A stretch of DNA of 64,000 nt, taken from an uncultured archaeon. Lineage in GTDB: Archaea; Asgardarchaeota; Lokiarchaeia; Sigyniarchaeales; SOKP01. Position numbers and translations under genes: made by a program. Position 1 is the first letter of the stretch. Every line of letters begins with the position of its first letter. The notes beneath the pieces are model-generated. The model did not search any database. It saw only the letters and a program-made list of their open reading frames with translations, and was not told the origin of the DNA. Positions 4,679 to 64,000 of the stretch are shown one piece after another. The DNA lies in assembly GCA_964508365.1 (NCBI GenBank), contig CAZDTP010000011.1, forward strand, positions 1 to 64,000, written 5' to 3'.

Positions 4679-6688
4679 ATGAAATTCTTTAAATTATTTG
4701 AACCTCTTGAAATTGGCAATATAACAATTTCAAATCGCATAGTTATGCCCGCAATAAATCTCAATATGGCTAGTGATGGATATATCGATCAAAAGTTAAT
4801 TGATTTTTATGTTGAAAGAGCAAAGGGTGGTGCTGGAATGCTTATTGTCGGAGGATGTTATGTAGATCTTTATGCAAAAGGGCATCCAATGATGATTTCT
4901 ATTGAAAGTGATGACTATATACCAACTTTAACCAAATTAACACAAGCTGTCCATGATGCGAGGGATGATGTAAAGATTTGTGCTCAAATGTATCATGGTG
5001 GAGCATATACTCTTCCTTTAGTAATTGGTAAAGCACCAATTGCTCCATCGGCAGTATATAGTAAATTTAGTAAAACCACTCCAAGAGAAATGACTCTTGA
5101 AGACATTAAAAGTGAGCAACAAGCATTTGCTGATGCTGGTTTACGTGCAAAAAAAGCAGGATTCGATGCTGTTGAAGTTTGTGCCAATGCCGGCTACTTA
5201 ATGACACAATTTATTTCTCCAAAAACCAACAAACGGACTGATAAATATGGAGGAGATCTTGAAAACCGTCTAAGATTCCCTATAGAAACATTGGAGTTAA
5301 TGAAATCTAAGCTAGGAGATATCCCTCTTGGTTATAGGATTTCTGGGGATGATTTTGTACCTGGAAGTAACACTTATAAAGAAAAGGCTGTTATAGCTGA
5401 AAGACTATCCAAGTATCTAGATTATCTTAATGTAACTGGAGGGTGGCATGAAACAAAAACCCCTCAGACAACAATGGATGTTCCAGAGGGATGTTATTCA
5501 TATTTGGCAGAAAATATTAAGAATCATGTTTCTATACCTATATTTTCTTCCAATAGAATAAACACACCTGAATTGGCTGAGCAGATTTTAATGGCTGGAA
5601 AAGCTGATGCCATATGCATGGGTCGAACTTTAATCGCGGATCCTTACCTCCCTGAAAAGGCAAAGAAAGGTGAATTAAGGGATATCATGTATTGTATCGG
5701 CTGTAATCAAGGATGTTTTGATGCCATCTTTAATATGCTATCAGTAACATGTTTAAGAAATGCTAGAGCCGGAAAAGAAGCTAAGACAGAGTTAAAACCG
5801 CTTGAGACCAAAAAAAAAATTATGATAATTGGAGCTGGTCCAGCAGGATTAGAAGCTGCGCGTGTTGCGGCTATGAGAGGTCATGAGGTGCATTTATATG
5901 AAAAAGATGATAAAATAGGTGGGCTCTTAAATATAATCTGGATACCGCCAGGAAGGAATGAATTTAAGAGGATAATTGAAAATTATACTTACTGGATTCA
6001 GAAATACAATATTAATGTACACCTGCAACAAGAAATAACAAGTGAAAAAGTTAAAGAAATAAATCCTGATATTGTATTAGTGGCAACTGGTTCCACTCCA
6101 ATTAAACCTCCTATTACGGGAATTGAAAGAGATAATGTATTTTGGGCAAATGATGTATTTAACGGTGATGCTCCAGTAGGGAAAAACAATGTAATCATTG
6201 GTGGGGGTGCTACAGGAATAGAATTAGCAATTTACATAGCGAAATACGGATCATTGGATATTGATTCATTTAATTTTCTCACACAATACAAAGCACTAGA
6301 GCCAGAAGTAGCATTGAAAATGATGCATGAAGGAAGGAATAAAGTAACTGTTTTAGAACAATTACCAAAATTAGGATCAGCATTAGGTAAAACTACTAAA
6401 TGGGTTCTATTGGATAAATGTGATTACCTTGGAGTGAAAAAACTTACCAGTGTAAAAGTAACTGAAATTGGTAGGGATTATGTATCTTATATTGATGCTA
6501 ATGATACCGAACAACAAATTAACGATGTAGATTATGTGTATCATGCCACAGGTGTTAAATCAAATGATTCTCTTTTTAAAGAGCTAAAAACTATGAAAAT
6601 TCCTGTAGAAAAACTCGGGGATGCTAAAAAACCACAAACTGTTATGGAAGCTATTAGCCGGGGTTATAACCTCGGTAATCGAATTTAA
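4679..6688 (+). CDS. fadH: NADH:flavin oxidoreductase / 2,4-dienoyl-CoA reductase-like (OYE barrel + Fe-S + FAD domain)
   Basis: NRIVMPA, ERAKGGAG and RTDKYGG (OYE barrel). CIGCNQGC Fe-S motif. IIGAGPAGLEAA FAD-binding motif. Confidence 0.85.
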   Translation: MKFFKLFEPLEIGNITISNRIVMPAINLNMASDGYIDQKLIDFYVERAKGGAGMLIVGGCYVDLYAKGHPMMISIESDDYIPTLTKLTQAVHDARDDVKICAQMYHGGAYTLPLVIGKAPIAPSAVYSKFSKTTPREMTLEDIKSEQQAFADAGLRAKKAGFDAVEVCANAGYLMTQFISPKTNKRTDKYGGDLENRLRFPIETLELMKSKLGDIPLGYRISGDDFVPGSNTYKEKAVIAERLSKYLDYLNVTGGWHETKTPQTTMDVPEGCYSYLAENIKNHVSIPIFSSNRINTPELAEQILMAGKADAICMGRTLIADPYLPEKAKKGELRDIMYCIGCNQGCFDAIFNMLSVTCLRNARAGKEAKTELKPLETKKKIMIIGAGPAGLEAARVAAMRGHEVHLYEKDDKIGGLLNIIWIPPGRNEFKRIIENYTYWIQKYNINVHLQQEITSEKVKEINPDIVLVATGSTPIKPPITGIERDNVFWANDVFNGDAPVGKNNVIIGGGATGIELAIYIAKYGSLDIDSFNFLTQYKALEPEVALKMMHEGRNKVTVLEQLPKLGSALGKTTKWVLLDKCDYLGVKKLTSVKVTEIGRDYVSYIDANDTEQQINDVDYVYHATGVKSNDSLFKELKTMKIPVEKLGDAKKPQTVMEAISRGYNLGNRI

Positions 6689-55914: not shown

Positions 55915-58236
55915 TCAAAGATAAATATCAATGTCTTTTTTAGGAAATACTTTTAAGATTTTCGGTAATTCTACTCCTAATCTTATCTTCTCACAGATTT
56001 CAACATAAATAGGGTAGAAATTATTAAGTATCTTGTATATTTCATTCCATGCCTTTTGTTCTTCCGTATTCTCACCAATCTGTTTCCTGAGTTTGGGAAA
56101 TATAGCACTTGATTTATTCCGATTTAAAAATTTAAAAAATTGTTTCGTTACTTTTATTCTAATCTTTTCATATGCTTCTGGTCTAAAATTAGCGATGCTG
56201 TAACTTAAGTCATCGTCAGTAATGGGAAAGAAATTGATACGCTTATCTTCAGGTTCATCTGGATTTTTCTCTAAACTTAATTCTAAATCTTTTGCTGCAA
56301 TAATTTCCAATATGGGATAGAGTTGACCTGGATTGATATGAGTTTCCATTTGAATCTGAGACGCGATTTCTGATATACAATAATGAAAATCGGGATATTT
56401 CTCTTGATTTTCAATCCGATAAGCATACTCTTTTTTTAATATATCGATGATATTATTTTTTAATATTTGAGGAATCTCTTTTTGAGTAAAAGAAATCGAT
56501 GCATCCTTTTGCATTTGTTCAAAAGATAAATCATCTTTTTGTTTTTTTGTATAATCCGAAGTTAAAGAAGAAATAAATTGATCCGAAGCTTTATTTTGGT
56601 TAGTATCAACATGTAAGTCGAGTTTTTTAGGTTTGTCTGATCTCATGGTTGTGAAGAGTCTATCGGACAGATATTTTTTTGCTTTCTTCTGTGCTAATTC
56701 TTTTTTATCGAACTTTTCGAGAATAGAAGTAAAGTCTACGAATTTTTGATATCGCCCTTGATCATCTTTTACATCTTTCAAAATAATATTCAAATTAATC
56801 TTCGATAGAGTACCAACCAAAGAATATATCTTATTTTTAGAAAGCCTAGTAGCTCTAATCAACTCGCGATCTAAAATCTCTAGAGGAAAACCCTCCCCCC
56901 TTCGTAAATACTCGCTCCTTAAGAGTTTATAAATTATATCCATAATCTCCTCTTCTTGATCTACCGTTTCTTTCTGCAAACGAATAAACATTGAAGTTTC
57001 ATGTGGTTTTAAATAATAAAATAGCAGAGTACTCCCTAGGAAAATAATCATTATAATAGAGATAATAAACTTATCTGCCATGAAAAACTGTCCAAGGGGG
57101 GTAATTATCTGATTTGGAATTTGTGTCTGTAAAGCATAACGAGTAAGAGTTTGAGAAAGAACACAGCCTAAAATTAAAAGTATTAAACCATCTCTTTTAA
57201 AGATAAGAAGGTTCCATTCTATTGAACGCCCTAATTTTTTGATGATTCTATACAGGAAATACATAGATACGGCAAATTCTAAAATAAATATAAACCATAC
57301 TGTAGAACTACTCGCACCTACAGTCTCTTTTAGGGCGATTATAGTTGCTGGATTTAAAATTAAGAATAGTGATAACTGAAAGACTTGGAAGAAAAAGATA
57401 AATAAAACTATTAAAGAAAAAGTGAAGTTATCAAACAATCCGGCTCTCTTTGTCTCAGCTCTTCGTCGCGTAAATACAAATTCAAATATAATGAACAAGA
57501 GAGTTAAAATTAAACTAAAATATATTAAGGGCATTATCAAACGCATTTCTAATTCATAAACTCCTACTGCTTCACTGGGAGCAAAAGGACCAAAAAAATC
57601 AAGAGAAATATAAACTAACAGACCACGGTAAAACAGGGCTATTATAACTAATACTCCTAAAATAAAATATGGAGCAATGAAAGCTAAAAATCGTCGAAAT
57701 CCAGAATATTTAGCAATAAACTTAGCCTCTATTTTAGTTGCAAACTTTCTGGAATACATGTAGAAGCGAATACTTAATAATAAAAGCCAGATTGTTGACA
57801 ATCCTAATAGATAGCTTATTAAATTTGTGTTTATATTATAGACATATAGGAAGAGAACAAAGAAACCCGAAATAATTCCAACATATAAAATAATCTGTTT
57901 AATACCTGAATGTTTTTCAAAAATGAATATTCTAATTTTATCAATGCTATATAATATAGATAATGCGAGAAAAAAAGCCACCAATGCGTTTCCAAAAACA
58001 AATGGGTTTCCAAAAGTAAGAACGTTTAAATATGTACCTGGAAAATTTATCCCGACTAACAATAAAAAAGAATAGATCAAAAAAATAAAGTAAATTACAA
58101 AGAATTTTCTTTCTCCAAAGTATGATTTCGAAGTTTCTTTTCCTTCTACATAATGTTCTTGTATAAATATTTTACGAATGTTCTTTTGAAGAGAATCTTT
58201 TATCTTTGTTAGATTTTCTTTAGCATTCATTTTCAT
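55915..58236 (-). CDS. Polytopic membrane protein with large C-terminal soluble region
   Basis: About 11 TM helices in residues 45-410, then about 360 soluble residues with two winged-helix-like segments. Confidence 0.75.
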   Translation of the reverse strand: MKMNAKENLTKIKDSLQKNIRKIFIQEHYVEGKETSKSYFGERKFFVIYFIFLIYSFLLLVGINFPGTYLNVLTFGNPFVFGNALVAFFLALSILYSIDKIRIFIFEKHSGIKQIILYVGIISGFFVLFLYVYNINTNLISYLLGLSTIWLLLLSIRFYMYSRKFATKIEAKFIAKYSGFRRFLAFIAPYFILGVLVIIALFYRGLLVYISLDFFGPFAPSEAVGVYELEMRLIMPLIYFSLILTLLFIIFEFVFTRRRAETKRAGLFDNFTFSLIVLFIFFFQVFQLSLFLILNPATIIALKETVGASSSTVWFIFILEFAVSMYFLYRIIKKLGRSIEWNLLIFKRDGLILLILGCVLSQTLTRYALQTQIPNQIITPLGQFFMADKFIISIIMIIFLGSTLLFYYLKPHETSMFIRLQKETVDQEEEIMDIIYKLLRSEYLRRGEGFPLEILDRELIRATRLSKNKIYSLVGTLSKINLNIILKDVKDDQGRYQKFVDFTSILEKFDKKELAQKKAKKYLSDRLFTTMRSDKPKKLDLHVDTNQNKASDQFISSLTSDYTKKQKDDLSFEQMQKDASISFTQKEIPQILKNNIIDILKKEYAYRIENQEKYPDFHYCISEIASQIQMETHINPGQLYPILEIIAAKDLELSLEKNPDEPEDKRINFFPITDDDLSYSIANFRPEAYEKIRIKVTKQFFKFLNRNKSSAIFPKLRKQIGENTEEQKAWNEIYKILNNFYPIYVEICEKIRLGVELPKILKVFPKKDIDIYL

Positions 58237-58339: not shown

Positions 58340-58690
58340 TTGTCATTCATAGCTGAAAATTTAAAAGGCTTCAATTATAATATAAATATGCAAATGGATA
58401 ATCAGCCAGATAAACCAGATAAAGAAAACTTGATAAAACTGGTCAAACAAGGCATTGAAATGTTAGCGGAAAGGAACATTTCGGATATGCTGATTTTGTC
58501 CTCATATAAAATAAATTCAGTGTTAAAAGATAACTATGGTGTGGATATTAAGGTCGATAGAATTGGACGAATTCTGTCTTCTGTAGCAAAAAATAATCAA
58601 TTAAAGCGATTAAAAACACAAATCCCTAAATATCAATTGCATATATCGAAAGTTGGTAGACTTCAGTATCCTGAGTTGTCACCTTCGTGA
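58340..58690 (+). CDS. Hypothetical protein, possibly winged-helix
   Basis: 116-aa basic protein. The SSYKINSVL...VDRIGRILS segment is HTH-like. Confidence 0.55.
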   Translation: MSFIAENLKGFNYNINMQMDNQPDKPDKENLIKLVKQGIEMLAERNISDMLILSSYKINSVLKDNYGVDIKVDRIGRILSSVAKNNQLKRLKTQIPKYQLHISKVGRLQYPELSPS

Positions 58691-58785: not shown

Positions 58786-60168
58786 CTATTTCTTAATAAT
58801 TCGAAAATCAGGAATTATTTTTTGTAATCTGTCAATTAACTTTTCAAGTTCTATAAAATTTTCGTTGAAATTTTCTAATTCTGAAATTAAATTATCCAAA
58901 TTGGTAGTAATGTTTATTTCGAAGGGATGATTGATAGCACTTATTCCTTTTAACATTTCAATAGAGAGATTTTCTATTTGATTCGTTAAATCTGAGATTT
59001 GTTTTGCTGAGTATTCAATTTTCTCTCTTGTGTTTGTGTCTAATTTTGATAGTTCGTATAGTTTATTAATAGATTCATTGAGCTCATCTTTTATAGACTT
59101 AGAGATATCACTGATACTTTGTTCTAAATATTCGCTAATTTCACTTTTTAAGATTTCACTAATCCCGTAGGTATTCGATTTTAATTCTTCTTGTCCCTCA
59201 AGACGTTTTCTTATGTATTCTTCCACTTTTTCCTTATATTCATCCAACCTTTCTTTAAATTTTAAGTCAATCCAATTTTCTACTTTTTCAAAACCCCTAT
59301 TAATTCTGGAATTCATTTCTGATAGAGAGTTATTTATTTTATCAAGACCTATTAAAGCTCCATCATTAAATTCCGTAGACCATAATTCCAATTCGGATTT
59401 ATAATTATTCAAGACTAGGCTAGATAAATTCTGTAACCCTTTTTTAAACCCGTCTATAACCGGATTAATGTTAGGATAATTTATGTCGATTCTTGTATCA
59501 ACTTGATCGACTGACTTCGGAATTTCTTGAAGATCGCCTGGAATTCCTTCAATCGTCTCTAATCTCTCGCGTATTATATTTGGATCCTTTGCCTGACCAT
59601 ATTCAACAAGCTCTCGAACCCATCTGAAGAAGTCTAGGGATTTTGGCGTTTCTATTTCATATTTCACTCTAACAATTCCGCTTTTTTCGCCTAATTTGTG
59701 ATTTTTTAATTGAAATACATCTAAACCTAAATGATTGTTTTTTTTAAGTTTAGTGTGATCAAATACGATTCCAAATGCTAAGGAGTTTTGTTCATTTTGA
59801 AAGTATAAATGGTTCTTTTTATCAACATCTGAAAAGAAAAAAGAATCACTGTTGGGGTGTGAATGATACCAACCTACAACGGTAGGGTTCTCATCTTTAA
59901 CTTCTTCTTTTATCTGCTCAAGTACTTTATGAATCTTTTCTGAAAAACCTAATTCTACTTGATCACCGTGTGTAATGGGAATAGCTTTGATCACGTCAAT
60001 ATCATCGCTGTCAGGTTCTTTGTTTCCCAAACAAAATCCTAGAACTTGTTCATCGGAATCAAATATAGTATTAGCAAATCTTAATACATGAGTAAGAATA
60101 TCTTTATACACACTCATTCGTATGAACACTTTACCTTTTTCTCTAGTTTCAATTGTGCTCTCATTCAT
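58786..60168 (-). CDS. MPN/JAMM-domain protein with long helical (coiled-coil-like) C-terminus
   Basis: QVLGFCLG, AIPITHG and VVGWYHSHP...FSDVD, followed by about 270 helical residues. Confidence 0.88.
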   Translation of the reverse strand: MNESTIETREKGKVFIRMSVYKDILTHVLRFANTIFDSDEQVLGFCLGNKEPDSDDIDVIKAIPITHGDQVELGFSEKIHKVLEQIKEEVKDENPTVVGWYHSHPNSDSFFFSDVDKKNHLYFQNEQNSLAFGIVFDHTKLKKNNHLGLDVFQLKNHKLGEKSGIVRVKYEIETPKSLDFFRWVRELVEYGQAKDPNIIRERLETIEGIPGDLQEIPKSVDQVDTRIDINYPNINPVIDGFKKGLQNLSSLVLNNYKSELELWSTEFNDGALIGLDKINNSLSEMNSRINRGFEKVENWIDLKFKERLDEYKEKVEEYIRKRLEGQEELKSNTYGISEILKSEISEYLEQSISDISKSIKDELNESINKLYELSKLDTNTREKIEYSAKQISDLTNQIENLSIEMLKGISAINHPFEINITTNLDNLISELENFNENFIELEKLIDRLQKIIPDFRIIKK

Positions 60169-60170
60169 CT

Positions 60171-61625
60171 CTATTCTTTACCTCCTTTTTCGAGTTCTTT
60201 GATTTTTAATAATAACTCTTTTTTCTCAGATTCCAATTTATCGATTTTTTCAAAGATGGGTGCTTTTGTTCCTTCCAAAATTAAAACTGCAGCTTTTAAG
60301 TTTGTTACAAACTTTTGAGAATTCTTTTGTAGATCACTAATTGAATTCTTTATTAAGCCATGCTTCTTCGATGTAAGATCTGAGGTTTCTTTTTGCATTC
60401 TTTTTATCTTTTCGAGTGTAGCGTCTTTTATCGTAATTATTTTATCAGATAAAATATTTAATGAATTTTCTAATTTTTCGAGATTCTCGAGATTAGTAGT
60501 TAGATTTCCATTGAGATTCATTATTTTACTGCTCCATTCGTCGTGATCTTTTGAGAAATCATTTTTTAATGCTTCAAATTTCTCCTTAAATGAAATATTT
60601 AGTTTCTCTTGAACGAATTCTTCTATTTCTCTCAAAATTTTTCCTATCTCATCATGATATACATCTATTTGGTCTAGAAAGTCGTCAACATAACCTTCTG
60701 CGTTAAACAATTCAGAATTTAAATCGTCTTTATATTTCCTTTGTATTTTATCAATTCCAGAGTTCACTAAATTTTTTAATTGAGATAAATTGTTTCTGAT
60801 TTCAATGTTGTTATTCTCAATTTCTCCCGAAATGTTTTTTGATATCGAATTTAAATAGTTAATCAAGGGTGTTAAAGATAAATCTATAAAGTTAGAAAGA
60901 CCGATTTGAACTGATTCAATAATTTTATGTTGATCTATTTCAGGTTGCTTAAACCTTAATTGATTCAATTCAGGGACTTGAACATCACCAAAGATATCAG
61001 CTGTTTCGTTTTCTTCTGTAATAGGGGGCTCATTTGAATATACACAATTAATTAGATCAACAATTTTAAAATAATACTCTAAATCGTTAGGAGGTTCAAC
61101 AATAGCCTTCACATCGTGAACACTCGAATCCCTGATATCTGTTGGATTAGTTAATCTAATAGCCTTAAATCCCAGATCATCTGGATGTTCCAAATATGCG
61201 TGGTCAAAAACTAGTGCTATTCCACTTGGATTCAATTCATTTTGCCAACCGAATTGATTTTTTACATCCGTAGGCGAAAAGAAAATCTTGTGCTGGAATA
61301 ACAGAGGATGTGAATGATACCAGCCCACAATAAAAAATCCTTTATCGTAGTACATCGAATTAGCTTTTTCAAAGAAAATATAATCGTTAATCGAGAATTC
61401 TACTTCTACGCTACTCCCATGAGAGATTGGTACGGAATCTTCAATTACGACATTCTTAAACTTCTTATCTTCGCCATCTTCGAGGTGCCCAATAAGCACT
61501 CCCATTACTTCGATACACTGAGAATGATTTCGAGCCTTGTTTCCAAAACGTAATACATGTAACACCATTTTATAATAAGCAAGTGGCTTTATCTTTACAA
61601 CGCTATTATCTATATCTTTACCCAA
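60171..61625 (-). CDS. MPN/JAMM-domain protein with long helical (coiled-coil-like) C-terminus
   Basis: IEVMGVLIG, SVPISHG and IVGWYHSHP...FSPTD, followed by about 290 helical residues. Confidence 0.9.
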   Translation of the reverse strand: MGKDIDNSVVKIKPLAYYKMVLHVLRFGNKARNHSQCIEVMGVLIGHLEDGEDKKFKNVVIEDSVPISHGSSVEVEFSINDYIFFEKANSMYYDKGFFIVGWYHSHPLLFQHKIFFSPTDVKNQFGWQNELNPSGIALVFDHAYLEHPDDLGFKAIRLTNPTDIRDSSVHDVKAIVEPPNDLEYYFKIVDLINCVYSNEPPITEENETADIFGDVQVPELNQLRFKQPEIDQHKIIESVQIGLSNFIDLSLTPLINYLNSISKNISGEIENNNIEIRNNLSQLKNLVNSGIDKIQRKYKDDLNSELFNAEGYVDDFLDQIDVYHDEIGKILREIEEFVQEKLNISFKEKFEALKNDFSKDHDEWSSKIMNLNGNLTTNLENLEKLENSLNILSDKIITIKDATLEKIKRMQKETSDLTSKKHGLIKNSISDLQKNSQKFVTNLKAAVLILEGTKAPIFEKIDKLESEKKELLLKIKELEKGGKE

Positions 61626-61873
61626 TATAAATCACTTCATCTTTAGAGAAACTAATGAATTTATTCTATAATATTTTTTATTTTTAACAATAATAATTTT
61701 GAGCAGTTAATATAAATGTATTGTGAATGATAATTTATTCTTCTTTTTCATTTATATCTTTTATTAGATTCTTAATTTTTAAAACAATCTTAATCAACAC
61801 CTAGTTAAAAATAAGAATCCTACTTTTTTTTGTAAGAAAGGTTAATAGGAAATAATAGAATAAACGTTTTAAT

Positions 61874-62548
61874 TTAATGGGGTAGTGGTTTGCCGCAGTA
61901 AGGACAGAATTTCCAGTCTAAATCTTTCCCACAATGAGGACAAAAAGTGGAAGAACCAGTTGTAGAGTTATCAGGCGTAACATATTCTACACCCTCTCCT
62001 TTTGGGATTGGAGGTAAACTTTTGGTAGTTTTTAGCGTCGATGGTGCTTGTTGACTTGCTTGAGCTCTTTTTTCTTCCTTAACATACTTCATCCTCTCTT
62101 GAAATGCTTGGCGTTTTTCGTCTTCTAATTCTTGATTTGACTTCATGCCCTCTTCTTTTACCCATCCTGTTGCTGCTGGTCTCTTCATTTCGCTTTCTGG
62201 AACTTTTTCTAATTCAACTTCTTTAGCTTCAGAAATCGGGGCTATAACTTTTTTTTCTTCTTTATTAGTAATAGCCTGCTTAGTTAATGCGTGAGTAGTT
62301 TTCATAATTTGGTGGGGATTTATATTTGGAATTGCTACTGTTCTCAGCACCCATCCCACTATGAGATTTTGGTTAGGAAAACCAGAAGCGCTCATATCTT
62401 CTTCTTTAAAAACATAGGAATCAATAACATCTTTGCCTTTTAGTAAACGGATAGCCCATTTATCGTTTATAAGCCCTAATTGAATCCTATACGAAGTTCC
62501 AGGAATCCCTAGTTGACTACTTAGAGGTTCAAATCCTTGTTTAGAAAT
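61874..62548 (-). CDS. Hypothetical protein with C-terminal double zinc ribbon (apparent ATT start)
   Basis: The frame stays open for 51 codons upstream of the ATG at 62395 ((M)SKQGFEPLSSQLGIPGTSYRIQLGLINDKWAIRLLKG...) with no ATG, GTG or TTG. C-terminus CPHCG...CPYCG. Confidence 0.7.
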   Translation of the reverse strand: MSKQGFEPLSSQLGIPGTSYRIQLGLINDKWAIRLLKGKDVIDSYVFKEEDMSASGFPNQNLIVGWVLRTVAIPNINPHQIMKTTHALTKQAITNKEEKKVIAPISEAKEVELEKVPESEMKRPAATGWVKEEGMKSNQELEDEKRQAFQERMKYVKEEKRAQASQQAPSTLKTTKSLPPIPKGEGVEYVTPDNSTTGSSTFCPHCGKDLDWKFCPYCGKPLPH

Positions 62549-62782
62549 AATTACATCAACTCAAATTATAAGAAAATCTAATTAATTGGAAGCAAATCTA
62601 ATTTGTTGAAATTATAATATTATCATAATTTTCGAGTTTAAATAATTTTATATTTGGTGGCTGAAAAAAAAAAAATATTTTGGGATTTAGACATAATTGA
62701 AGTAATATAAAATCTAAAAAAATAGACATAAATATGAGATCTTGTATAAGCTTATCAAAAAAGAAATCTTTGAATTAAAAAT

Positions 62783-63729
62783 ATGACTGTATTTATTCCC
62801 AAAAATGTTTATTTGACCATCGTTGCTGCATGTGGTAGGTATGCCAATAAACGAATTGATAAAGACGATTGGCTTGAGGTTAATGGTATATTGGAAGAAA
62901 TGAAGGAAACGATGTATATATTACAAAAACGTATCCCATAATGCATCAAGAACTGGATAAGGATGCTGTTATTGATCAATATAAATGGAGTATCGAAGAT
63001 TATGAAACTTTTTCTATTATTGATGACGAAGCCTTTTCAAATGGTGAATTTACAGTAGGATGGTGGCACAGTCATCCTGGATTCAAGATTATGATGTCCC
63101 ATATTGATATCAAAACTACTCTGAGTTATCAAACAAATAATCCTCTTGCTGTTTCATTAGTGTTTAATCCTGATAGATTAGTGAGACAAGTTGAACTTCC
63201 TGACAAAAAAGGTGATCCAGTAAAACAACTTGAGGGCGATCCTGGATTTAAAATATTTAGACTAGATGATGTAAATAAAGGAATTCAAGCGTCCTATCAT
63301 ACTGTAGATTATATTGTTGAAGGTTTCGATACCAGGGAGCAATTAGTAACATTAACTCAGAAATTTTTAATTGATATTACTATCATGTTTCCAAAAGACA
63401 ATATATTTGAAACATATGAAAAGTTCGTAAATGACCGAATTAACGAGTTAAATTCACTTATTCAAGGAACGGATGAATATTTAAGTACACTTATGAGAAA
63501 AGGAGAATCTGGCAGGGTGTACGAGGTATTAGAAAATCAGACTCGAGATATTAGAAAATTTGTTGCTGAAACATTCGTCAAAATCGAGAACATTAAACAA
63601 TTTATGGAATTTTTAGAGTATAAAGAGCGAGATATCGTTATCCCTAAAATAAAAGAAATAATGTCTAAATGGGATGAAACTATTGAACACCTAAATGAAA
63701 CGCTTACAGAGATAGCTAAAAAGTATTAA
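62783..63729 (+). pseudogene. MPN/JAMM-domain gene with a frameshift near 62891
   Basis: The ATG at 62783 gives MTVFIPKNVYLTIV...WLEVNGI. The frame from 62893 gives GRNEGNDVYITKTYPIMHQ...VGWWHSHPGFKIMMSHID. Together these form one MPN domain. Confidence 0.85.
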
Positions 63730-63858
63730 TCTTTGAAAAGAATATTCTGCAATGTTTTTTCTAATTTTCCTATTTCTAATCTGTTGTTTAAAGGGAAAAT
63801 CTTAATTTTAATTATTCACTATTCTACTTTATAAATTAAATAGCTATATTCGATTATT

Positions 63859-64000
63859 ATGCGTAAAGTTCAATTTCCTTTTGTTGCTATTTTAGGGCAA
63901 GAAAGAATGAAACTCGGTCTTATATTAAACGTTATCGATCCTCAAATTGGTGGAGTATTGTTAACTGGACAACAAGGAACCGGTAAATCTACAGGAGTAC
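63859..64000 (+). CDS. Mg/Co-chelatase ChlI-like AAA+ ATPase (5' part, runs off the window)
   Basis: MRKVQFPFVAILGQERMKLGLILNVIDPQIGGVLLTGQQGTGKST. This matches the FPFxAIxGQ...GGVL and Walker A pattern. Confidence 0.88.
   Translation, partial: MRKVQFPFVAILGQERMKLGLILNVIDPQIGGVLLTGQQGTGKSTGV

Follow-up and report, generated by a model that had tools for sequence, protein, structure and literature searches.

The question raised by this locus is whether a cluster of genes for MPN/JAMM proteins in an Asgard archaeon encodes one ATP-driven deubiquitinase-like machine or several smaller units. The window, by which we mean the whole 64,000-nt stretch analyzed (positions 1-64000 of contig C11, in a genome of 4.07 Mb with a GC content of about 31%, an estimated completeness of 100%, and protein matches labelled as Asgard archaea of the Promethearchaeota or Lokiarchaeota), carries genes for three MPN-domain proteins (MPN1, MPN2, and MPN3), a zinc-ribbon gene, and the start of a gene for a chelatase-type AAA+ ATPase. 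A sequence-only reading had proposed that these five genes form a cluster, and all five were found in place with the reported gaps, 2 nt from the MPN2 stop to the MPN1 start and 129 nt from the end of the MPN3 open reading frame (ORF) at 63729(+) to the start of the ChlI-like ORF at 63859. Four details needed revision: MPN3 is frameshifted, MPN1 has lost its catalytic Glu, the listed zinc-ribbon ORF is too short, and the AAA+ gene is actually a ChlI-ChlD fusion. The cluster is nevertheless real and conserved and its proteins are uncharacterised. Because the linkage between the genes breaks up beyond the family, the comparisons reported below support two two-gene modules, MPN2 with MPN1 and MPN3 with the zinc-ribbon protein, rather than a five-gene machine. 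The explanation that we favor, with about even confidence, is that the region holds lineage-specific isopeptidase modules of the eukaryotic JAMM/MPN type that belong to a Loki-type Asgard order.

All three MPN ORFs score above the cut-off of the Pfam JAB model (PF01398, 22.5 bits), with 41.3 bits for MPN1 (E = 1.6e-10), 51.0 bits for MPN2 (E = 1.5e-13), and 26.8 bits for the truncated MPN3 ORF (E = 5e-6). None of the three reaches the cut-off set for the prokaryotic JAB model. When profiles of the MPN2 and MPN3 families were compared with the PDB, the matches ranked in the order Caldiarchaeum Rpn11, CSN5, Rpn11, BRCC36, and AMSH with E-values from 1e-12 to 1e-7, and Rpn8 and CSN6 were matched weakly. 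The proposed likeness to Rpn11 and CSN5 was therefore borne out, these being eukaryote-type MPN+ domains with archaeal Rpn11, CSN5, Rpn11, and BRCC36 as the top matches. The MPN2 family contains 278 homologs, nearly all of which are labelled as Asgard.

The HSHP...S..D motif attributed to the three paralogs is present in each of them. The His/His/Ser/Asp zinc site (H-x-H-x7-S-x2-D) has canonical spacing in MPN3, one additional loop residue in MPN1, and three in MPN2; the three-residue insertion in MPN2 is a feature of this clade, and most MPN2 orthologs are canonically spaced. MPN2 in this genome has the full pentad of catalytic residues (E39, H104, H106, S117, and D120), where E39 belongs to the E-x-x-G motif. 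In MPN1 this position is occupied by Gln41, with H102, H104, S113, and D116 retained. The corresponding Glu of MPN3 lies in an out-of-frame 5' fragment here and is in frame in orthologs.

To follow these residues across relatives, a search with the MPN2 profile was used to fetch 80 Asgard loci, the orthologs were aligned, and the five catalytic positions (Glu, His, His, Ser, and Asp) were read in 80 loci for MPN2, 75 for MPN1, and 60 for MPN3. Judged by the identity of their ChlI-ChlD proteins, all 80 loci belong to one GTDB family (f1). The genes for MPN2 (60171-61625, minus strand, 484 aa) and MPN1 (58786-60168, minus strand, 460 aa) form a tandem in which MPN1 directly follows MPN2 in all loci with enough flanking sequence, and the tandem also occurs on separate contigs in two genomes (G132 and G130). 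Both proteins have a JAB domain followed by a linker and a helical tail, and they are 27% identical over 401 aligned positions. The pentad of MPN2 is intact in all 80 loci. By contrast, that of MPN1 is intact in 28 of 75 orthologs and has been lost in at least five distinct patterns (QHHSD, EHRSD, E[IL]RTT, ESHS[ESA], and E[VIL]HTD). The changes include Glu to Gln (17 loci, the window among them), second His to Arg (19 loci), first His to Ser, Ile, Leu, or Val (21 loci), and Asp to Thr, Glu, Ser, Ala, or Gly (16 loci). MPN1 also evolves faster, with about 30% identity compared with about 40% for MPN2 at equal distance.

The proteasome lid, the COP9 signalosome (CSN), eIF3, and BRISC are built around paired MPN+ and MPN– subunits as their core. 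What we find here is an active-type MPN+ protein encoded next to a paralog with a degenerate active site. As judged from the aligned residues, an invariant MPN2 beside an MPN1 that sheds its active site is the MPN+/MPN– signature of Rpn11-Rpn8, CSN5-CSN6, and BRCC36-Abraxas, and the substitution patterns mark MPN1 as the degenerating partner in the tandem. A tandem of this style in an archaeon is the most solid new point of this analysis, and a paired-MPN isopeptidase module is well supported.

The long helical tails attributed to these proteins were confirmed by their periodicity and by an AlphaFold2 (AF2) model. In MPN1, a conserved linker (LQEIP) is followed by a helical tail of about 235 residues. 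The hydrophobic periodicity of the MPN1 and MPN2 tails peaks at 3.65 residues (11/3), compared with 3.5 for heptads, and the tails weakly match models for ApoA-I/A-IV, apolipophorin-III, perilipin, and YtxH-type proteins. In the AF2 model of MPN2, the MPN domain is joined through a disordered linker, in which some motifs are conserved, to two helices at residues 232-369 and 374-481 (about 135 and 105 residues). The low-confidence model of the tail would be consistent with an extended helical hairpin, which might pair with the tail of a partner or lie on a lipid surface. The tails had been likened to the MPN-plus-coiled-coil layout of BRCC36 and Abraxas; helical tails are indeed present but the analogy is a loose one because their periodicity is 11/3 and not heptad.

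These data suggest how the first module might work. MPN2 and MPN1 would probably be translationally coupled and would most likely form an MPN+/MPN– heterodimer, in which MPN2 would cut isopeptide bonds, most plausibly in Asgard ubiquitin conjugates, and MPN1 would act as a scaffold or activator like Rpn8, CSN6, and Abraxas. The 11/3 helical hairpins might pair the subunits, hold them on a membrane or larger scaffold, or both. Among possible substrates ubiquitin is the most plausible, given that the domains resemble ubiquitin proteases and that the genome has genes for ubiquitin and E2, with four ubiquitin-like and three E2-like genes elsewhere in it.

The second module is formed by MPN3 and the zinc-ribbon gene, which are divergently transcribed on either side of an intergenic region at 62552-62782; this arrangement is kept in family f1 and in f3, another family of the same order. 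Most MPN3 orthologs are uninterrupted proteins of about 316 aa, of which about 115 aa at the C-terminus form a conserved helical domain. Of 60 orthologs, 58 have the whole pentad, and the remaining two show a Ser to Thr change. MPN3 was found in 140 of 153 genomes of the order and in 39 of 39 high-quality ones. In the window, the gene is split over two frames. The start codon and the codons up to number 36, among them those of the EV(N/S)G motif with the catalytic Glu, make up a 5' fragment (62783-62889, plus strand) that is out of frame with the main part (62890-63729, plus strand), which encodes the zinc site HSHPGFKIMMSHID, a conserved insertion, and the C-terminal helical domain. The listed ORF starts at ATG 62941 and does not include the catalytic Glu. 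Alignment of the DNA with six close relatives revealed a 4-nt deletion near 62889, at the catalytic Glu motif. MPN3 is thus broken in this assembly and the deletion is either a true mutation or an assembly error. A programmed frameshift was also considered and rejected, there being no slippery site and the comparison with relatives indicating a simple 4-nt deletion.

The zinc-ribbon gene (61874-62551, minus strand, about 225 aa) is longer than the listed ORF (61874-62395). A strongly conserved domain of about 95 aa is encoded upstream of the ATG at 62395, with no in-frame ATG, GTG, or TTG, and this N-terminal extension is conserved in about 75 loci. In two relatives (L011 and L012) a stop codon immediately precedes the Ile-Ile codons of the gene (window 62545-62563, minus strand). 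Because there is no canonical in-frame start and because of this stop position, translation in this clade probably starts at ATT 62551 or 62548. The N-terminal domain is followed by an acidic, Pro-containing linker with conserved motifs (VELEKVPE, GWVKEE, and LPxIP) and a C-terminal CxxC...CxxC ribbon matched by zinc-ribbon Pfam models. The family has 626 homologs, annotated as zinc-ribbon or hypothetical proteins, and among the 120 listed all named ones bear an Asgard-lineage label. AF2 models residues 1-100 with pLDDT (predicted local distance difference test) values of about 83-94. For this N-terminal domain, a Foldseek search of the PDB returned nothing at E ≤ 0.001, the ESM Atlas gave no match above 0.78, and the best hit of a VIA wide search was a de novo design (Z = 6.3). 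The PH-like folds EVH1, RanBD, and Rpn13 Pru were rejected as candidates since their Z scores of 3.6-4.5 fall in the noise band. In the second module, MPN3, which is predicted to be active in relatives, would work together with the zinc-ribbon protein as its adaptor, regulator, or substrate.

A separate observation concerns inserts in the coding sequences of orthologs. In genus g12, the MPN3 genes of at least 12 different genomes contain an insert of 29-32 nt that falls precisely at the junction of the codons for HSHPGF and KVMMSHID (L023:8610-8672, L028:8517-8579, and L042:8482-8544, all minus strand, and also L045, L046, L053, L076, L106, L108, and L114-L116). The window's own MPN3 copy is without it. 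The inserted sequence folds into a bulge-helix-bulge motif, and cutting at the predicted sites brings the coding sequence back into frame. Its central 4-bp helix is paired in 10 of 10 aligned copies, with compensatory changes from C-G to U-A twice and from G-C to A-U once. The 30-nt inserts are in frame yet contain stops and therefore would be excised rather than bypassed by frameshifting. Very probably, the insert is an mRNA mini-intron of the tRNA type that lies within the active-site motif. In three ChlI-ChlD orthologs, a 32-nt insert at NPEE|G forms an equally canonical bulge-helix-bulge (central helix CCGA/UCGG and inner helix UCCUA/UAGGA; L015:3333-3363, L016:7228-7258, and L037:~5896-5905). 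In several other genomes the ChlI-ChlD matches are split near residues 176-190 or contain internal stops, and in L038 the split is near residue 119. In the searchable literature, splicing within an archaeal coding sequence is documented for cbf5 only (PMC2738675), and a 2026 preprint on introns in Asgard archaea is restricted to tRNA genes.

The linkages between these genes differ in how deeply they are conserved. In all 80 loci the genes are arranged in the order coiled-coil, Roadblock, ATP-grasp, ChlI-ChlD, and MPN3, then zinc-ribbon, MPN2, and MPN1, then a small ORF, and then a 773-aa membrane protein and a major facilitator superfamily (MFS) gene. In this genome the part beyond ChlI-ChlD lies outside the window, on the same contig, where the next genes encode an ATP-grasp protein, a protein with a double Roadblock/LC7 domain, and a coiled-coil protein. 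In genus g2 of the same family, MPN3, ChlI-ChlD, ATP-grasp, Roadblock, and coiled-coil stay together, and zinc-ribbon, MPN2, and MPN1 are about 10 kb away. In three genomes of family f3, the divergent zinc-ribbon/MPN3 pair alone persists and all other neighbors differ; those of f3 (a glycosidase, TFIIB, NadA, and CysRS among them) have no common theme. The MPN2-MPN1 tandem of f3 is on a different contig or was not found, and ChlI-ChlD is 16-40 kb away, near coiled-coil and Roadblock genes. Other orders of the class have homologs of the zinc-ribbon N-terminal domain and 5-7 long-tailed MPN paralogs that are not adjacent. Conservation of the neighborhood across Asgard genomes, which the sequence-only reading had named as a check, held in part: the full block is kept in one GTDB family, the divergent zinc-ribbon/MPN3 pair holds across the order, and MPN2-MPN1 moves as a tandem unit.

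Two further genes in the window share the synteny of the MPN pair throughout the family and also in genus g2. One encodes the 773-aa protein (55915-58236, minus strand), which has a multi-pass membrane region at its N-terminus and a cytoplasmic part with winged-helix-like repeats and no Pfam match. The other is a conserved 116-aa ORF (58340-58690, plus strand).

The dissolution of the block with phylogenetic distance could also mean that the genes are neighbors by descent, that is, three independent MPN enzymes with their own targets, derived from a class-wide expansion of tailed paralogs and clustered without functional meaning. Genomes of the class have 5-7 long-tailed MPN paralogs scattered over their contigs, as this explanation would predict. 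However, MPN2-MPN1 and zinc-ribbon/MPN3 each outlive rearrangements that remove all of their other neighbors, and two independent enzymes would hardly be expected to show such asymmetry, with the active site of MPN1 decaying next to an MPN2 that stays invariant. We consider descent alone to be unlikely, although a credible alternative.

This genome holds seven JAB genes, two of them short and five with long C-terminal extensions (the three in the window and one each on contigs C7 and C76). The paralog on C7 (C7:74703-75902, minus strand; equivalent to L117:7704-8903) encodes a 399-aa tailed MPN+ protein and adjoins an Alba gene. That on C76 (C76:413-1969, plus strand; equivalent to L118) encodes a 518-aa tailed MPN+ protein with a C-terminal half that is TPR-like in appearance, and about 1.9 kb from it lies the gene for a weak PCI/winged-helix protein. 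With 5-7 copies in each genome, the tailed MPN paralogs seem to have expanded throughout the class. A role of the genes as a defense system was rejected because PADLOC gave generic JAB matches only and because the genes are near-universal and single-copy.

The sequence-only reading had gone further and proposed a single multi-subunit isopeptidase and ATPase machine. In such a complex the three MPN proteins, the zinc-ribbon protein, and ChlI-ChlD would act together, with the vWA domain and its metal ion-dependent adhesion site (MIDAS) in the position of Rpn10 or MERIT40. The AAA+ gene (63859-64000 in the window, plus strand, ending at contig position 66066) is of the chelatase type, as claimed, but it is really a 735-aa ChlI-ChlD fusion that runs past the end of the window. 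Its AAA+ module contains Walker A and B motifs and is accompanied by an AAA lid; beyond a linker, a vWA domain with the MIDAS motif DSSAS forms the C-terminus. The protein matches the Pfam models Mg_chelatase, AAA_lid_2, and VWA_2. The vWA partner expected by the sequence-only reading therefore exists, fused within the same protein. The genes are contiguous in nearly all f1 loci, the adjacency of MPN3 and ChlI-ChlD extends to the divergent genus g2, the MIDAS is intact, and the zinc-ribbon linker has conserved acidic motifs; moreover, ChlI-ChlD is independent of CobN and would need some other client. Against this, the block is limited to one family, where the synteny takes in the unrelated MFS gene just as well and is therefore unspecific. 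In f3, ChlI-ChlD is at the distance given above from zinc-ribbon/MPN3 and travels with the coiled-coil and Roadblock genes, and it is widespread in the phylum, including genomes with no nearby MPN block. The 129-nt gap between MPN3 and the AAA+ gene also speaks against one integrated unit. The claim of a single machine is not supported by the comparisons made here, and we regard it as quite doubtful. A connection between the MPN proteins and ChlI-ChlD through the MIDAS is possible, but the tie of the ATPase to the MPN genes, as read from synteny at the level of the family only, is weak.

A different partnership would be a writer-eraser system outside of ubiquitin, where the ATP-grasp ligase adds amino-acid or peptide tags, possibly to the zinc-ribbon protein, and the MPN enzymes remove them. 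The ATP-grasp gene (PF02655, E = 6e-30) starts 44 nt after ChlI-ChlD and keeps its place behind that gene throughout f1, including g2, and the MPN genes are not linked to genes for ubiquitin, E1, or E2. However, outside f1 the ATP-grasp gene is unlinked to any MPN gene, the MPN domains are closest to ubiquitin-specific families, and no tag or acceptor motif was identified. This makes a tagging system of this type very improbable.

The cluster copy of ChlI-ChlD is present in 128 of 134 genomes of the family. CobN/ChlH (PF02514) was not found in the window's genome, and control genomes were positive. In the order, CobN is present in 18 of 61 high-completeness genomes, and these tend to carry a second ChlI-ChlD copy. 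Judged by this distribution, the cluster copy is a CobN-independent paralog and not a chelatase motor in this genome. That the gene encodes an ordinary cobalt or magnesium chelatase subunit with the MPN genes as chance neighbors is extremely improbable: it is strongly similar to TIGR02442 (E = 1e-174) and BchI/BchD, but its 582.5 bits are below the TIGR02442 cut-off of 779.45 and the BchI and BchD cut-offs are also missed, and we rejected the classical chelatase role because CobN is lacking.

Across the order, ChlI-ChlD is more durably linked to the coiled-coil and Roadblock genes than to the MPN genes, and the actual partners of the ATPase may be encoded by the former. It stays within a few kb of the coiled-coil and double Roadblock/LC7 genes, as in five f3 loci (L085-L087, L093, and L095). 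The C-terminal domain of the coiled-coil protein is conserved. One locus (L018, DATKTW010000008.1) has ChlI-ChlD and MPN2 proteins that are 98-100% identical to those of this Asgard block and was deposited as part of an actinobacterial metagenome-assembled genome (Nanopelagicaceae); this contig is very probably a binning contaminant.

Several observations weigh against the explanation of the region as lineage-specific isopeptidase modules. None of the three MPN genes adjoins a gene for ubiquitin, E1, or E2; those operons own the two short JAB genes, which on contigs C3 and C31 are neighbors of genes for E2-like and ubiquitin-like proteins. The MPN1 pentad is still whole in 28 of 75 lineages, and therefore MPN1 may still be an enzyme in some of them. 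The AF2 model of the MPN2 tail is of low confidence (mean pLDDT of 64). The zinc-ribbon and MPN3 genes are no longer adjacent in other orders of the class, and since MPN3 is broken in this genome, the second module may be non-functional here.

Comparison with known systems helps to place the isopeptidase modules. Like Rpn11-Rpn8 and CSN5-CSN6, the Asgard pair has PF01398-type MPN domains, one partner with an invariant E...HxH...S..D site and a paralog that loses it, C-terminal helical extensions on both partners, and profile matches to CSN5 and Rpn11 at 1e-10 to 1e-12. By contrast, the Asgard tails of about 250 aa with 11/3 periodicity are far longer than the helices of the lid or CSN, MPN1 is intact in about a third of lineages, and there is no link to a proteasomal ATPase. 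A search of the genome for PCI partners (PF01399) gave only weak winged-helix matches, which were equally present in control bacteria. The likeness to BRCC36-Abraxas/ABRO1-MERIT40 lies in an active MPN+ protein with a pseudo-MPN, helices capable of bundling, and a vWA domain nearby; BRCC36 was matched at 5e-10 and MPN1 weakly matches the Pfam Abraxas MPN model (0.012). However, the Asgard vWA domain is fused to a ChlI-type AAA+ domain with linkage at the family level, the tails are not heptad coiled coils, and no ubiquitin E2 variant (UEV) subunit was found in this comparison. The best-scoring solved relative of both MPN2 (1.7e-11) and MPN3 (1.2e-12) is Rpn11 from Caldiarchaeum subterraneum (PDB 6fjv). 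That protein is an archaeal MPN+ enzyme that processes ubiquitin, with a single domain, encoded within a Ub-E1-E2-E3 operon (PMC6043591). By contrast, the Asgard trio is tailed, paired, and encoded outside ubiquitin operons, such genes being on C3 and C31. ChlI-ChlD shares the AAA+, linker, and vWA-MIDAS architecture of ChlI/ChlD (BchI/BchD) and TIGR02442 proteins, but it has no CobN/ChlH partner in this genome and is below the family cut-off.

To our knowledge, the paired MPN+/MPN– arrangement has been regarded as a eukaryotic invention. A more far-reaching proposal is that MPN2-MPN1, possibly with MPN3, the zinc-ribbon protein, and the AAA+-vWA protein, is the archaeal counterpart or forerunner of Rpn11-Rpn8-Rpn10 in the lid and of BRCC36-Abraxas-MERIT40 in BRISC. 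The heterodimer of active enzyme and pseudo-enzyme would then predate eukaryotes and have arisen in Asgard archaea. We consider this improbable, a long shot on present comparisons. Nonetheless, the tandem pair makes the origin of the MPN+/MPN– arrangement directly testable in archaeal proteins. The CobN-independent ChlI-ChlD AAA+-vWA protein, near-universal in its GTDB family, is a further point of interest. In addition, MPN2/MPN1, MPN3, and the zinc-ribbon protein emerge from the analysis as three Asgard families that are uncharacterised and had been annotated as hypothetical until now.

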